Below, piece by piece: positions 33,563 through 63,290 of a stretch of 64,000 nucleotides of DNA. A model generated the notes under the pieces. The model was not told where the DNA came from. It ran no database searches and saw only the letters and a list, made by a program, of their open reading frames with translations. The DNA lies in IMG/VR virus record IMGVR_UViG_3300042268_000478, positions 32,001 through 96,000 of that record; one strand, written 5' to 3'. The translations under genes and the position numbers were made by a program. Every line of letters starts with the position of its first letter. The stretch's first letter is position 1. The DNA comes from a virus (Duplodnaviria > Caudoviricetes).

Positions 33563-33817
33563 AGTCTTGTGCTCCTGTGGTTTTCGCATAAAATAATTAT
33601 GCGTCTTTTGCAGCCCATCAAAAACTTCATTTACTACTCGTTATACTCCTCTGTGGTTTTTTAGGTAACTGTACTTGGTTAAAAAAAATAATTATATAAC
33701 GTAATAATTATTTAATTATATATTGTAATAATAGAATATTGCATATTTCACCTCATTGCAAGTTTTTCCATTTAGCTGAGCTTAAAATATTTCACTATTT
33801 TTTTAATTTACTACTTT

Positions 33818-33833
33818 AATTTACTAAATTAAC
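33818..33833 (+). promoter_or_regulatory. Repeated motif AATTTACTAAATTAAC (copy 1)
   Basis: Exact copies at 38171-38186 and 54093-54108; 1-mismatch copy at 40335-40350. Confidence 0.6.
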
Positions 33834-33883
33834 CATTATAATAAACTTTATAATCTTTAAAAACCACAACAAAAGGAAACCAC

Positions 33884-34210
33884 ATGCATAAAAAAAGAGA
33901 ATATCCTGAAGGGCTAATGGTTAAGATCAAACATCAATTAATCATTGGCTTCCTCGAAAAACAACGACTGAAAGGTAAATCAAACACTGAGATTGTTGAA
34001 CACGCCTTGGCGAGCTTTCTCGGCATTTCTTTGCCGGACAAGAAATATGGAACAAGGGCAAGAAAAAGCGGAGCTGACTACACAAAAGGGCTTCCGGTAA
34101 AAATCAGCGAGAACAGCCTGATCAAAGAAATACTTTATAGAAGAACAGCCAAAGGCATCCCGCATTGTTTCACTGTTGAGAAAGCAATGCTCGCCTACAT
34201 GGAGGGATGA
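33884..34210 (+). CDS. Cro-position small regulator with internal duplication
   Basis: First gene of early operon; two similar halves (YPEGLMVKI / YTKGLPVKI). Confidence 0.6.
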   Translation: MHKKREYPEGLMVKIKHQLIIGFLEKQRLKGKSNTEIVEHALASFLGISLPDKKYGTRARKSGADYTKGLPVKISENSLIKEILYRRTAKGIPHCFTVEKAMLAYMEG

Positions 34211-34211
34211 A

Positions 34212-34511
34212 ATGAATAGTGTAGCAAAGATACCTGAAAGCATTGTGACTTCAGTCTCAGTACTACTCCATCCATATGGCATAGATTTCAAGGAGCTTTT
34301 GAATAAGGCAAAAGATAATTTCGGCAAAACAGAAACAAAATACATGACCCCTTCACAGGCAGCACAGTATTGCGGTTTTTCTCCAAAAACAATTAGAGAC
34401 AAAGCTCTTGCTGGAGAAATAGACTCTACGAGAATTGGGCATTCCGAAAAAAGCCGAGTTCTAATCTTAAAAAGCAGTTTGGACGCATGGCTTGAAAGTT
34501 TCAAGTCATAA
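34212..34511 (+). CDS. Excisionase-like HTH protein
   Basis: 'YMTPSQAAQYCGFSPKTIRD...GEI'. Confidence 0.8.
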   Translation: MNSVAKIPESIVTSVSVLLHPYGIDFKELLNKAKDNFGKTETKYMTPSQAAQYCGFSPKTIRDKALAGEIDSTRIGHSEKSRVLILKSSLDAWLESFKS

Positions 34512-34547
34512 CATAAAAAACCACAAAAGAAAGAAAAGGAGCTTATC

Positions 34548-35264
34548 ATGAGCAACCTCGTAATCGCAAACGAAACAATCACGGCACTGGACAATGCGGC
34601 AAAAGCTGGATTGATTGCCCAGAAAGAAGCAAGCCAGTTTAAGAAAATGGCTTTAGTTGCCGGAGCAATTCAGGAATTAAGGGCTTTGCTTACTCCTAAA
34701 GTCATGGCTCCCGTTATGGCTTTGCAAGGCACGGCTATTGGATTCAGAACCGACAAAGACGGCAAAGGAGGATATGACGTTGATACCGTAAAAGATTGCC
34801 TCATTGAAGCTACTCTTCAGGGCGTTTTTCCGGTAGGGAACGAATTCAATATCATCGCCAGCAGGTGCTATATCACCAAGGAAGGTTTCGGGCATAAACT
34901 TCGTGATATTCCTGGGCTTTCCTACATGATTACTCCATCCGTGCCGGTAATGAGAAACGGTGGTGCTGTTGTAAAAATGCTTGTTGAATGGACTTACAAC
35001 GGCAAGTCTAACTCCAGAGAGCTAGAGATTGCCGTCAGGGTGAATAACGGCATGGGAACCGATGCTATCATTGGAAAAGCTGAACGCAAAGCCCGTGCAT
35101 GGCTGTACAAAGCAGTTACGGGACAGGAAATCGGCGAAGGCGATGTCGAAGACTTGGACGCTATTGACGTTACGGTTACTGATGTTGAAGCAACCTCCCC
35201 ATTTGAGGAAGAAGCAACAACTGAACCGCCACCGGAAGAAGCGCAAGACGAACTCCCAATGTAA
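34548..35264 (+). CDS. Putative single-strand annealing/recombination protein
   Basis: Position before exonuclease; acidic tail; family not firmly identified. Confidence 0.45.
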   Translation: MSNLVIANETITALDNAAKAGLIAQKEASQFKKMALVAGAIQELRALLTPKVMAPVMALQGTAIGFRTDKDGKGGYDVDTVKDCLIEATLQGVFPVGNEFNIIASRCYITKEGFGHKLRDIPGLSYMITPSVPVMRNGGAVVKMLVEWTYNGKSNSRELEIAVRVNNGMGTDAIIGKAERKARAWLYKAVTGQEIGEGDVEDLDAIDVTVTDVEATSPFEEEATTEPPPEEAQDELPM

Positions 35265-60900: not shown

Positions 60901-60915
60901 ACAAGGAGCTGAATT

Positions 60916-62103
60916 ATGGCTTTTGATTTTGGACAATTCAATGAATTTTCTGATGACGTAACTAAGGGTGATCCGGTAGTAATGGCGGTTGCCAAGGCGA
61001 TCGAGCTCGGTCCTTTTAAAGGCGCGTTCTATCAGGCTATGAGTGCGCCTCGCATAGGCATCACCCAGAAGCAGTTTGATGTATATTCTCGCAGTAAAAC
61101 CAGCCGTGACGGCGTTATCGGTGACGGTGCCGCTGGTGGTTGGGACGACAGTGCGACTACTGGTCTGAAAATGCCAGCCGACGTTCTGAAGGGCTTGACC
61201 ATCGGTCACGTTCTGAAGATTGAGAACGAAGTCGTGAACATTAAAGCGGTTGACAGAGCTGCAAACACTATTGATGTTTATGCTCGTGGCGATGCTGGAA
61301 CCACTGCGGCAGCTCATGCTGACCAGACCGCATTCATCGTTATTGGTTATGCCGGTTCTGATACTGACCTCAAGAATGTTGAGAGCATGTCTGAAACCAC
61401 TAACCTGTACAGCAATTACGTGCAGACCATCTTTGAGGTAATGGACTGGACTAAACACGCAGAGCTTACCCGTAAGGGCTTGAGTTCAGCCAATGCTACC
61501 ATTATCCTGGTGCAGGAAGCTGAAATCCGTGTTGCGGAAATACTCTCTCGCATGGCAATCCACGGCTACAAGCAGAAGCCGGTTGACGGCTCAAAGCGTT
61601 ACATGTCTGCCGGACTGTATCACCAGCTTGCGGATTCTAATAGTGGCAACAGGGCACCGCTCAGCTATAACGCCAATGGAGCTCTGACCGAAGCCAAAGT
61701 TAATTCCGCTATTAAAGAAGTCTTTAATAACGGTGGTGTTGTGGATACTATCTGGGCATCCCCAACCAACAAGGGTATTATCAATACCTTCAACATGGCA
61801 AACAGCCAGCTCGCGGTACAGACCAGCAAAGCCGATCACGTTGCCGGTGTATACATTGATTATATCAATTACGAAGGAAAGCTTATCGGTGTCCGTGTTG
61901 ACTCTGACCTTGGCGATGACAAGCTTCCAATCGTCAAACAGGCTGACTGTAAAAAAGGTTGGCTTGAGGGAGACGGCTTGCGCAAGCAGGACGAACCTAC
62001 CCAGTCCAGCCGTGAGTTCAAGAAATCTCTTCAGGGGTCTGTCGGATTCCAGATTGAGAACGTAGGTGTAAACCATACCTACCTCTACGGAATCACCGGC
62101 TAA
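60916..62103 (+). CDS. Major capsid protein (DUF5309/SU10-like)
   Basis: 'NYVQTIFE', 'RYMSAGL'; follows scaffold. Confidence 0.8.
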   Translation: MAFDFGQFNEFSDDVTKGDPVVMAVAKAIELGPFKGAFYQAMSAPRIGITQKQFDVYSRSKTSRDGVIGDGAAGGWDDSATTGLKMPADVLKGLTIGHVLKIENEVVNIKAVDRAANTIDVYARGDAGTTAAAHADQTAFIVIGYAGSDTDLKNVESMSETTNLYSNYVQTIFEVMDWTKHAELTRKGLSSANATIILVQEAEIRVAEILSRMAIHGYKQKPVDGSKRYMSAGLYHQLADSNSGNRAPLSYNANGALTEAKVNSAIKEVFNNGGVVDTIWASPTNKGIINTFNMANSQLAVQTSKADHVAGVYIDYINYEGKLIGVRVDSDLGDDKLPIVKQADCKKGWLEGDGLRKQDEPTQSSREFKKSLQGSVGFQIENVGVNHTYLYGITG

Positions 62104-62168
62104 GCCTAACCACATGGGCGGCTGAAATATGCCGCCCAGACTTACCACAAAAGAAGGAAACCGGAACC

Positions 62169-62816
62169 ATGACAAAAACCGAACAGAAACAAATAATTTA
62201 TGACCAGCTTGTAGAACTTGGCAGTAGACCGCCGAAAATAGCCAGACTGTGCAGACTCGAAGACCTTCAGGCAGCTTTGAAAAAAGCCCAGAAAGAAGCT
62301 GAAAAGGCTGAAAAACAGGAAAAGCCGTCAAATGAGGAAGCTGCACAAAAATCCTCAGAAGAAACAGAGAAGAAAACGGTTTCTACCTCAAAAACTCCTG
62401 AACAACAAGACTTGGCTGGCACTGGTATAGCAGATGCTCAGCATGTGCAAACGCCCCAAAACACGGAAAAAGACGAAAAACCTGCACAGCAAGTGCCTGG
62501 CAATAGTGAAACAGATGTCGAACAAGTGCCGGAAAAGACTGAAAAGTCTGAAAAACCGGAGGTTTCACCTCAAACTCCCGAAAATGCACAGCATATGCAT
62601 AGCACAAGTAATACGTCTGCACACTTAGACGGAGTCGAAGACGAAGACGATAATATTATTATTCCTAACGGAATAGATAACCGCACGGTTATCCCAACTC
62701 TGACATTTAAATCATCAGGCTGGTGTGAAGAGCTCAAGAAAAGCTATTTCCGTGGTTCATATAAGCCACAGAGCATAGCGGAATACGACGCTCTGAAACC
62801 CTACGCCAAAAAATAA
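62169..62816 (+). CDS. Low-complexity hypothetical protein
   Basis: E/K/P/Q-rich repeats; RBS GAAGGA. Confidence 0.6.
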   Translation: MTKTEQKQIIYDQLVELGSRPPKIARLCRLEDLQAALKKAQKEAEKAEKQEKPSNEEAAQKSSEETEKKTVSTSKTPEQQDLAGTGIADAQHVQTPQNTEKDEKPAQQVPGNSETDVEQVPEKTEKSEKPEVSPQTPENAQHMHSTSNTSAHLDGVEDEDDNIIIPNGIDNRTVIPTLTFKSSGWCEELKKSYFRGSYKPQSIAEYDALKPYAKK

Positions 62817-62828
62817 GGACTTCCCAAG

Positions 62829-63215
62829 ATGACTGATTTAGAGCTGTTGCAATATGTTGATGGATACTTCAACACCCATCTCGATAAAACCTTCTGGACT
62901 GGATTGACTGAAGAAATGCGCATGTCGAGTATTGCGATGGCTCAATCAGATATCTTGGCTGAACTCAATGCGGATGAACTTGATTCAACCAATATTCCGT
63001 CTCTCAAGGCAGTAGCGGAACAAGCCGTTTATCTGGCACGCAACTACGAGAATCTCAATGAGAACAAGATTGCGACCAGCGAAAACATTGAGGGCATTTC
63101 CACCGGCTACACCCTGATTGGAAACAAGCCTGGTATCTCTCATCGGGCTGTTTCATTCATTAAACAGGCTAAAAAAGCCAATTTAAGCCGTTTTACGAGC
63201 TTCTCACGTGGATAA
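62829..63215 (+). CDS. Head-tail adaptor-like protein
   Basis: 'KAVAEQAVYL...SENIEGISTGY'. Confidence 0.65.
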   Translation: MTDLELLQYVDGYFNTHLDKTFWTGLTEEMRMSSIAMAQSDILAELNADELDSTNIPSLKAVAEQAVYLARNYENLNENKIATSENIEGISTGYTLIGNKPGISHRAVSFIKQAKKANLSRFTSFSRG

Positions 63216-63290
63216 ATACAATTTACCATACAAACCACACAAAAGTTAATAAAGTCCACCACAGGGCTTTAAAATGGATTTTAGACTAGC

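Follow-up and report, generated by a model that had tools for sequence, protein, structure and literature searches.

The heptamer AACCACA is a start-associated word of prophage 2 that, judging from its position and strand, most likely acts in the mRNA on the start of translation. Its copies keep to the sense strand shortly upstream of start codons, the word is sharply defined and specific to this phage, and its core is conserved in the repressor leaders of relatives. We tentatively regard it, at a little under an even chance, as a single-stranded part of the initiation region, for which a specific trans-acting reader is postulated.

AACCACA sites of prophage 2

The window, the whole stretch of 64,000 nucleotides that was analysed, contains 29 copies of AACCACA, compared with 7.48 ± 2.77 in dinucleotide shuffles. 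All 20 of the 20 sense-strand copies in prophage 2 lie no more than 61 nt upstream of a start codon, most of them less than 30 nt, and the 27.9 kb of its sense strand outside leaders contain none. Only two antisense copies occur in prophage 2 (44239 and 52577), both within genes, and the last 10.9 kb of the record, which lie past the window and hold late genes, are free of the word. The leaders of 51 starts (−62 to +3) contain 20 exact copies against 0.59 expected from within-leader shuffles; from −45 to +3 the count is 17 against 0.56, and none of 5000 shuffles gave more than 5. The word is thus enriched over the A/C-rich leader background, the comparison fixed in advance by the earlier note. 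Exact copies are enriched 34-fold and one-mismatch variants stand at background (10 against 10.8 expected), which identifies a sharp word beyond mere A/C-richness of the leaders. No other C/A hexamer is enriched in the leaders of this phage.

The core is ACCACA, usually with a run of A before it and purines after it. The core is exact, while the flanks have diverged and carry little information content, which suggests selection on the core to a greater degree than recent copying. AACCACA does not contain a Shine–Dalgarno (SD) sequence; it sits 0–19 nt upstream of the SD or within the SD–ATG spacer, and five copies overlap the ATG or occupy this spacer. Its predicted unpaired probability is 0.83, compared with 0.60 for the surroundings. 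About 14 genes of prophage 2, the repressor among them, carry the word near the ribosome-binding site (RBS), and the members of a pair are spaced 16 to 35 nt apart. Eleven word clusters belong to early or accessory regions, and two (62108 and 63233) precede head-module genes. Eleven uncoupled starts lack the word, so it is dispensable for translation.

All copies reported in the earlier note were found again on the plus strand and on the minus strand (33576-33582, 33652-33658), except that 35324 and 62143 hold the hexamer ACCACA (as TACCACA) and not the exact heptamer; two ACCACA hexamers, at 63258 and 55417, are additional. The minus-strand copies lie in the leader of a repressor-like gene (32852..33562, 237 aa, N-terminal HTH), whose start was set by alignment. 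The proximal copy (33582-33576) adjoins GGAG, 13 nt ahead of the real start at 33562, and the distal copy (33658-33652) adjoins GAGGAG, followed by a 23-codon upstream ORF. On the plus strand, the first rightward gene (108 aa, start 33884) is preceded by the pair AACCACA-acaaaAGGAa-ACCACATG (33862..33884), the second copy of which, at 33878, overlaps the ATG. A single copy (34519..34525) lies 11 nt upstream of the AAGGAG of a 238-aa gene (start 34548), and the DUF2800/PD-(D/E)XK exonuclease gene (start 35332) has the arrangement AACCACA-gcgAGGAtat-ACCACA-aa-ATG (35307..35329). The AAA_5 ATPase gene (start 38275) carries a pair around CCCGTAAGGG (38234..38264), downstream of an operator-bearing promoter at 38173-38215, and the second copy, at 38258, adjoins the GGAG of this gene. 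After a terminator-like T run, a single copy (40348..40354) precedes a 104-aa gene (start 40368), and the pair AACCACA-aaaAGGAGt-AACCACA-aa-ATG (40690..40712, second copy at 40706) lies ahead of a cold-shock-domain (CSD) gene (40715).

Further along the plus strand, a single copy (48796..48802) stands 1 nt before the GGGAG of a 62-aa gene (start 48819); the orthologous position in the relative L088 reads AACCACAGGAGG. A pair around CCGAAAGG(A) (49038..49065, second copy at 49059) precedes a 207-aa gene (start 49065), and the second copy overlaps its ATG. A single copy (54580..54586) lies before the AGGGA of a 97-aa gene (start 54604). A pair whose first copy reaches into the end of the gene before it (54887..54911, second copy at 54905) lies ahead of a 141-aa gene (start 54944). 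The DUF3846 gene (start 55414) has a pair flanking AAGGAG (55381..55422, second copy at 55407) and a third ACCACA just past the ATG, at 55417, which forms codons 2-3. Of the two head-module clusters, one consists of AACCACA, the hairpin GGGCGGCTGAAATATGCCGCCC and TACCACA (62108..62149) before a 215-aa gene (start 62169) located after the major capsid gene, and the other of AACCACA and CACCACA (63233..63263) upstream of the minor-head-protein gene (start 63291). The two GNRA-loop hairpins described earlier within word pairs both exist. However, their stems have just 3 bp (CCCGTAAGGG, 38244-38253) and 2 bp (CCGAAAGG, 49047-49054), and the latter includes AAGGA, the probable SD of the gene at 49065, so their significance is doubtful.

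Host, relatives and operator

The prophage belongs to Victivallaceae bacteria (phylum Lentisphaerota). Neither two Victivallaceae genomes nor element 1 nor 1 Mb of other phage DNA shows enrichment of AACCACA; element 1 carries it at background only, with zero copies at ribosome-binding sites, in agreement with the earlier note. Its density is about 7 per 10 kb of sense strand in prophage 2, against a background in host-family DNA and other phages of about 0.4–0.7 per 10 kb on each strand. In a 2.5-Mb Victivallaceae genome, AAAACCACA occurs 26 times compared with 21 for the control, and in a complete Victivallaceae chromosome ACCACA is present in just one of 156 leaders with an SD. The 16S 3′ end of a Victivallaceae chromosome is canonical, GGATCACCTCCTTT, and has no complement to AACCACA, which rejects extended SD pairing. 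AACCACA is therefore a phage-specific feature, foreign to the host.

Syntenic relatives, at about 65% protein identity, do not show the proliferation of AACCACA. In 7 of 8 of them the repressor leader nevertheless keeps ACCACA, with differing flanks, a few nucleotides past the predicted promoter, even though the repressor proteins are only about 35% identical. Their other leaders are loosely C/A-rich (for example ACCAACACCAAGGAGG and AACAACAAACGGAGG), and C/A-only runs occur in 64% of the uncoupled leaders of this phage, 47% of those in relatives and 20% of host leaders. As judged from these sequences, the relatives may represent an early stage, with the word in the repressor leader only, and this phage an expanded one. 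No close relative was found, the only other contigs being 100% identical to this phage.

The repressor operator is likely to be a palindrome distinct from AACCACA. The operator-like repeats, TTTACTAAA-N9-TTTAGTAAA or TTTACTAAATTAAC, lie at 33807-33835, 38173-38205 and 54095-54125, are shared by the relatives as TTTACC/GGTAAA, and have nothing in common with the word; the candidate operator is TTTACTAAA-N9-TTTAGTAAA. A promoter/operator cassette of 60 nt is duplicated (38162 and 54084), and identical copies of a 20-nt hairpin, at 35271 and 62118, adjoin words. The RBS cassettes have 20–34 nt of common sequence, which includes the first two codons, and ATGAGY is found at 6 of 13 word-bearing starts.

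Proposed role of the word in initiation

The AACCACA sites are most economically read as acting at the RNA level, in translation initiation. The word would mark the initiation regions of cistrons without translational coupling, upstream of the SD, in the SD–ATG spacer or both, and would function as a C/A-rich (ACA-type) enhancer, an unstructured landing site for the 30S subunit. That the word is conserved to the letter points to a trans-acting reader with sequence specificity; this reader could be a protein with a single-strand footprint of 6–7 nt or an RNA seed, and would join about 14 genes, the repressor included, in one post-transcriptional group. For AACCACA, we infer both the enhancing effect and the existence of this reader. 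The complementary TGTGGTT small RNA suggested earlier was not found in the phage: on the plus strand, TGTGGTT occurs just within genes (44239 and 52577, the latter in the loop of a hairpin of z = −0.3) and opposite the repressor leader, in antisense, and there was no Rfam hit.

The strand-specific and phage-specific start sites lend partial support to the RNA-level reading of the earlier note, whereas the mechanisms it had named (CsrA-like logic, antitermination and a cold-shock reader) have lost ground. AACCACA lacks GGA and holds no G at all, so a CsrA/RsmA site was rejected. With 13 clusters, the word is much too frequent for an antitermination signal; a lambda-type nut site was rejected on the hairpins, which are weak (stems of 3 and 2 bp) and present in just 2 of the 13, and on the P_R-proximal leader, which has none.

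The word could also work with no specific reader, as the form that a generic, unstructured and C/A-rich RBS flank takes in this phage, recognized by the ribosome (S1, standby), which we consider unlikely. The loosely C/A-rich leaders of the relatives would suit it, as would the positional flexibility of ACA enhancers. In IMG/VR, the arrangement of a heptamer, AGGA and the same heptamer is followed directly by ATG at a similar rate for AACCACA (30/124) and for the control AACACCA (26/117), which indicates that SD-flanking C/A heptamers are common in phages. However, a composition-driven signal predicts a cloud of near variants, and here the one-mismatch variants remain at background next to strongly enriched exact copies, with no further C/A hexamer enriched.

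A candidate for the postulated reader is the CSD protein P0121 (40715..40993, plus strand, 92 aa), which has intact RNP1/RNP2 aromatics and a basic tail, SRRRQWRRK. Bound to single-stranded AACCACA on either side of the SD, it would open the site (activation) or occlude it (repression, its own mRNA included), and its Arg-rich tail might touch the two small GNRA hairpins in an N/boxB-like manner; we find this role doubtful. P0121 is a canonical CSD with every aromatic RNA-contact residue present, and its own gene bears a word pair. Cold-shock domains bind 6–7 nt of single strand, a footprint that fits the word length, and we take the tail to resemble arginine-rich RNA-binding motifs. The equivalent region also lacks a CSD gene in the relatives without proliferation, a correlation seen in one case. 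These same relatives, however, conserve ACCACA in their repressor leaders, which suggests that the ancestral reader was something other than a CSD protein and weakens the proposal of the cold-shock protein as reader. Moreover, bacterial Csps mostly favour U/T-rich strands, the word is not enriched at 80 CSD-carrying viral loci, no close homologue of P0121 was found for a co-occurrence test, and the hairpin is present in only 2/13 clusters with stems of 2–3 bp. In an extended form, to which we assign a low probability, P0121 with its arginine-rich tail would read AACCACA flanking the SD and set the translation or the anti-terminated read-through of about 14 genes, the repressor and its own gene among them; this regulon would be layered on an older word that the relatives use in the repressor leader only.

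Action on DNA appears improbable. Here a phage DNA-binding protein, for example the Cro-like protein of 108 aa or the HTH_17 protein at 34176-34511, would sit on the duplex word as a polar roadblock or a local repressor, in the manner of stoperators. The words are short, asymmetric, oriented with transcription and placed in intergenic gaps, also at the divergent immunity region, and stoperators have these same properties (PMC3203893). A polar roadblock would show the same bias of position and strand as an mRNA element, and the ACCACA just downstream of the relatives' repressor promoter would suit a Cro-type shut-off. However, stoperators match the early-promoter operator, and the palindrome here is unrelated to AACCACA. 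The words follow the SD and ATG rather than intergenic space, with eleven gaps lacking them; the pair spacing of 16 to 35 nt fits a fixed dimer poorly; and 7 bp is short for specific duplex binding.

Lastly, the word might be functionless beyond a working RBS, a by-product of cassettes copied among genes by short-homology recombination. The phage has its own recombination exonuclease, and the similarity of the cassettes over 20–34 nt with the first two codons, the recurrent ATGAGY and the duplicated 20-nt hairpin and 60-nt cassette mean that part of the stereotypy could stem from copying; yet as a full account this is very unlikely, for the core is exact where the flanks have diverged, the word is kept in the leaders of strongly diverged repressors, and single copies sit in otherwise unrelated leaders.

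Comparison with known systems

The stoperators of Cluster A mycobacteriophages (the L5 gp71 sites) are DNA sites of 13 bp that have the repressor operator's sequence (PMC3203893). AACCACA shares with them many asymmetric sites that lie in short intergenic regions and are oriented with transcription. Here, however, the operator-like motif is another sequence, the palindrome TTTACTAAA-N9-TTTAGTAAA, and the dispersed word is tied to SD and ATG; a stoperator was thus rejected.

The operators of T4 RegA are short single-stranded sites over the initiation region of many early mRNAs, and are A/U-rich and degenerate. The likeness is that a phage-encoded factor would read short single-stranded initiation sites; the A/U-rich RegA sites differ from AACCACA, and no RegA-like protein was recognized among the phage proteins scanned. 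A P0121 regulon would be analogous to RegA in logic but different in fold, and, if true, would be a CSD-based phage translational regulon.

C/A-rich (ACA) elements beside the SD enhance translation irrespective of position (Yang, Figueroa-Bossi and Bossi 2014, PMC3879156), and in enterobacteria such enhancers are targeted by the GU-rich R1 region of the GcvB sRNA (PMC3879156). Like them, AACCACA is unstructured and C/A-rich, includes ACA, lies within or just upstream of the RBS at a variable distance from the SD (0–19 nt here), and recurs in several mRNAs. The ACA enhancers are loose repeats that a known sRNA targets in mRNAs of cellular transporters, whereas AACCACA is one exact heptamer in one phage, in which no complementary RNA comparable to GcvB was found.

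Among described features, the start-associated sequences (SAS/ESAS) of Cluster K mycobacteriophages (Pope et al. 2011, PMC3203893) come closest, and AACCACA is a new example of this class. Both are short, asymmetric, phage-specific repeats that are essentially absent from the host and keep a single orientation, with 11–19 copies per genome that directly precede start codons, mostly ATG, and with an extra upstream element at some sites. SAS lie mainly at non-structural genes, a bias that the eleven early or accessory clusters of AACCACA may share. The sequences are unrelated: SAS is a 13-mer, GGGATAGGAGCCC, with an SD core, whereas AACCACA is a 7-mer without an SD that stands on one or both sides of it at variable distance. 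AACCACA further differs in its host phylum, Lentisphaerota, in its two clusters in head genes and in its conservation in the repressor leader of relatives. Start-associated sequences have been known since 2011, and the present case makes the question of their reader and function testable: the word is 6–7 nt long, letter-perfect, and flanks the SD rather than containing it, its early and expanded stages can be compared between the relatives and this phage, and there is one obvious candidate single-strand binder. If AACCACA is a specific regulatory handle, it would show a temperate phage coordinating the translation of its early genes and its repressor; if it is an enhancer only, it would provide a compact, host-independent design rule for ribosome-binding sites in a little-studied phylum.

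Layout of prophage 2 and placement of AACCACA

The virus record containing the window comprises 106,924 bases. The late region of element 1 (terminase, tape measure and tail genes) occupies positions 1 to ~31,400 and is followed by prophage 2, which opens with an integrase (31520–32863) and a leftward repressor-like gene (32852–33562). The rightward early genes encode a 108-aa protein, an HTH_17 protein, a 238-aa protein, a DUF2800/PD-(D/E)XK exonuclease, an AAA_5 ATPase, a DUF7192 protein, a cold-shock-domain (CSD) protein, a methyltransferase, a MazG-like pyrophosphatase, an SSB and others. 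Downstream lie a predicted DNA-modification block and the small and large terminase subunits. Two defence-type accessory genes, a leftward AbiTii gene [53105–54058 (−), AbiTii domain, E = 6e-45] and a SLATT_5 gene encoding a two-transmembrane effector-domain protein [57507–58193 (+), E = 3e-45], enclose a second small-gene block (54195–57415), and the portal, scaffold, major capsid and minor head protein genes come after SLATT_5. Homologues of the ATPase carry the name Victivallaceae, and syntenic prophages were found within Victivallaceae assemblies. Separately, the CCGG heptamers TGCCGGA, CACCGGC, ATCCGGA and TCCGGAG are 5–10 fold above first-order expectation in 33500–63300 and in its relatives (loci L002, L004, L088 and L089); codon pairs could account for this excess, and so could a methylation or modification target.

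The window has 29 copies of the heptamer AACCACA, hereafter the word, where 7.48 ± 2.77 are expected. Nineteen plus-strand copies lie within 33862–63239, and the leftward repressor gene has two minus-strand copies in its leader. Start codons were assigned manually to 51 genes, using the ORF list together with alignment to relatives. Between −62 and +3 of these starts there are 20 exact sense copies, compared with 0.59 when each leader's own bases are shuffled, so the enrichment lies far above an A/C-rich leader background, the comparison that the earlier note had set as its refutation. Between −45 and +3 the values are 17 and 0.56, the highest count in 5000 shuffles being 5. The other 27.9 kb of the prophage 2 sense strand contain no sense copy.

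The core is ACCACA, with A at −1 in 21 of 24 sites and usually also at −4, purines on the 3′ side and low information content outside the core. The word is present at 13 rightward starts and at the repressor. The pairs that had been described were recovered: nine of the 13 rightward leaders hold two copies (hexamer-only copies counted) spaced by 16–35 nt, start to start, and in five of these nine the second copy either sits between the Shine–Dalgarno (SD) sequence and the ATG or overlaps the ATG. The word is missing from 11 other uncoupled starts; two of them have one-letter variants, AACCAAA (45688) and AAACACA (54195).

Distribution in host, relatives and other phages

The observation that the pattern is missing from the gene starts of element 1 holds, since element 1, like the remainder of the record, contains background copies only. 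In a 2.5-Mb Victivallaceae genome carrying a related prophage, AAAACCACA occurs 26 times versus 21 for the reversed control, and just two of 21 inspected host sites have a leader plus SD context. A complete Victivallaceae chromosome, of which 400 kb were examined, has ACCACA once among 156 SD-bearing leaders, and these leaders are A/T-rich and not C/A-rich. These counts rule out a host-wide signal, and the 16S rRNA of the complete chromosome, which ends in GGATCACCTCCTTT, rules out an extended SD sequence. Judged from these sequences, the word belongs to the phage, not to the host.

The nearest phages obtained have ATPases ~65–68% identical and repressors 29–37% identical to those of prophage 2; a search with the repressor alignment for further relatives gave six loci. 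Proliferation of the word is absent from the relatives, which have 1–3 sense copies per 20 kb each. A conserved TTGAAA-17-TAAATTAT promoter is followed after 7–15 nt by (A)ACCACA(A) in seven of the eight relatives with a readable repressor leader (L002, L006, L089, L365, L367 and L368; hexamer only in L088), and the bases next to the word differ among them. The word also stands directly before the SD at 17344 and 18391 in L006, 15938 in L089 and 19353 in L088, the last being the orthologous position to 48796 of prophage 2. The remaining leaders of the relatives are loosely C/A-rich, for example ACCAACACCAAGGAGG, AACAACAAACGGAGG and AACACCACATCAAAACACAGGAGG. With crude gene calls, C/A-only runs are found in 22/47 uncoupled leaders of relatives, 9/14 of prophage 2 and 31/156 of the host. 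The likely history is one of family-wide C/A-rich leaders and one conserved repressor-leader word, which was later fixed at many starts here. A private motif for each relative was rejected, as TAACACC, enriched in L088, is not start-associated; one strand of that locus, over its whole 21 kb, has 11 copies where 0.66 are expected, partly in hairpin or terminator contexts.

We scanned IMG/VR for AACCACA-N3-13-AGGA-N0-4-AACCACA and for the same pattern with the permuted heptamer AACACCA. Many matches to the first are real ribosome-binding sites; ATG follows directly in 30 of 124 among the matches listed, and in 26 of 117 among those listed for the control, figures that hold for the listed matches only, the two scan totals not being comparable with each other. 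High-density IMG/VR matches from an initial, separate pattern scan proved to be coding tandem repeats. In 1 Mb of unselected phage loci, association of AACCACA with ribosome-binding sites is no greater than that of the other 34 permutations of AAAACCC. A universal phage motif is ruled out by these permutations and by control matches of the same kind; thus, C/A heptamers on both sides of the SD are a common arrangement, which points to a "C/A flank" as a design shared widely by phage ribosome-binding sites. Identical C/A heptamers flank the SD directly before the ATG in many unrelated phage contigs with a GC content of 32–64%, among them L346 (7394), L339 (9707), L307 (2527), L336 (2521), L432 and L445. 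What is unusual in prophage 2 is that a single exact word is used throughout one genome.

Operators, hairpins and complementary sites

An operator-like motif, TTTACTAAA-N9-TTTAGTAAA, overlaps the −35 region at 38173–38205, with related copies at 33807–33835 and 54095–54125, and the relatives have equivalent TTTACC/GGTAAA repeats over their promoters. This motif is likely the operator of the repressor, distinct from the word. The strict stoperator model has dispersed sites that equal the operator sequence (PMC3203893); as the operator-like motif has a different sequence, the word was rejected as a repressor operator or strict stoperator. A 60-nt promoter/operator cassette, containing TTTACTAAATTAACTTG(C/A) and the inverted repeat over the −35 region, is duplicated with 72% identity at 38162–38221 and 54084–54143, with a related copy at 33802–33835; the same box lies ahead of the ATPase gene in L088 (~9790). 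These cassettes are probably the operator set of the repressor and would give three repressor-controlled early promoters. Between portal and scaffold, a leftward 103-aa gene [59727–60038 (−)] has GGTAAA-N4-GGTAAAATA repeats in the promoter upstream of it (60040–60110), which thus resembles the repressor promoters of the relatives; the lysogen may express this gene from its prophage.

Two further suggestions of the earlier note were not supported: the word has no G, unlike a CsrA-like site, and of its 13 clusters only two have hairpins, both weak (stems 3 and 2 bp long), a picture that does not resemble the nut sites of antitermination. No Rfam family was found in the window, and consensus promoter and terminator scans gave no informative signal. 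An identical 20-nt hairpin, GGCGGCTGAAATATGCCGCC, follows the stops of the 238-aa and major capsid genes (35271–35292 and 62118–62139), adjoining AACCACA copies in both places; its possible roles are attenuation and the stabilisation or processing of RNA.

The earlier note had also called for a look at complementary TGTGGTT small RNAs; none of the three plus-strand TGTGGTT sites examined in the phage is convincing. The copies at 44239 and 52577 are within genes, the latter in a hairpin loop of the large-terminase gene (folding z-score −0.3) that is missing from the relatives. The third lies antisense to the repressor leader; a weak terminator-like hairpin comes after it (33585–33603, z = −1.8), and no promoter was found for this site. 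In the repressor leader, a 23-codon upstream ORF, MKFLMGCKRRIIILCENHRSTRL (33630–33559, minus strand), encloses this 7-bp hairpin and the proximal AACCACA-GGAG, and its TGA overlaps the repressor ATG (ATGA); the repressor leaders of the relatives are short and lack the upstream ORF.

Candidate mechanisms and known systems

The experimentally closest system is that of ACA or C/A-rich enhancers, which the word resembles in composition and flexible placement. In enterobacterial yifK and dppA, translation drops 10- to 100-fold when ACA triplets near the SD are replaced; the effect is independent of exact SD distance, the contact is suspected to be protein S1, and GcvB, through its GU-rich R1 region, silences ACA elements by pairing (PMC3879156). 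The predicted unpaired probability is also higher at the word than in its surroundings (0.83 versus 0.60). Therefore, the word most likely acts at the RNA level in translation initiation, which it probably enhances.

Enhancement of a passive kind could draw on the same composition and placement, but as the sole explanation it is unlikely, since the word is sharp. The exact word is ~34-fold enriched, and its 21 possible one-mismatch variants jointly occur 10 times versus 10.8 expected, three of the ten retaining the hexamer; a signal from composition alone would leave a cloud of near-variants. This sharpness points to a sequence-specific reader acting on top of enhancement, the model that we tentatively adopt.

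That this reader is the CSD protein P0121 [40715–40993 (+)] is quite unlikely. In its favour, P0121 has a canonical CSD, in which every aromatic contact residue is present, and a basic tail, SRRRQWRRK; no other single-strand binder special to this phage was recognised, and the P0121 gene itself bears a pair of words. However, the repressor-leader word is conserved in relatives without a CSD gene, so the original reader must be something other than the CSD protein, whether a host factor, an RNA or a conserved protein of the phage. Moreover, 80 CSD-encoding viral loci (1.3 Mb) have the word at background, 0.67 copies per 10 kb per strand versus ~7 in prophage 2. No close homologue of P0121 was found, the nearest, P0125, being a cellular csp with an unrelated leader; other contigs with P0121 are 100% identical to the window. 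The CSD gene and a 199-aa SAM-methyltransferase gene (phrog_15480, weak RrnaAD similarity; block 40715–42070) overlap at ATGCCTAA; the MazG-like pyrophosphatase gene comes next, and this block is missing from the syntenic relatives fetched.

A polar site acting at the DNA level is very unlikely. Word-bearing cassettes share a loose similarity of 20–34 nt, for example 79% between 35303–35336 and 40686–40719 including the first codons ATGAG, so some copying between leaders has probably occurred; the flanks of the word have diverged and its core has not, and we regard pure copy-paste of cassettes as highly improbable.

Lastly, we compared the word with the start-associated sequences of Pope et al. 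(2011, PMC3203893). By description, it is likewise phage-specific, asymmetric, in one orientation and at ATG starts. Unlike those sequences, it has no SD core and flanks the SD instead, and length and host phylum differ. The word is a start-associated sequence by description, and by its likely mechanism nearest to C/A-rich enhancers.
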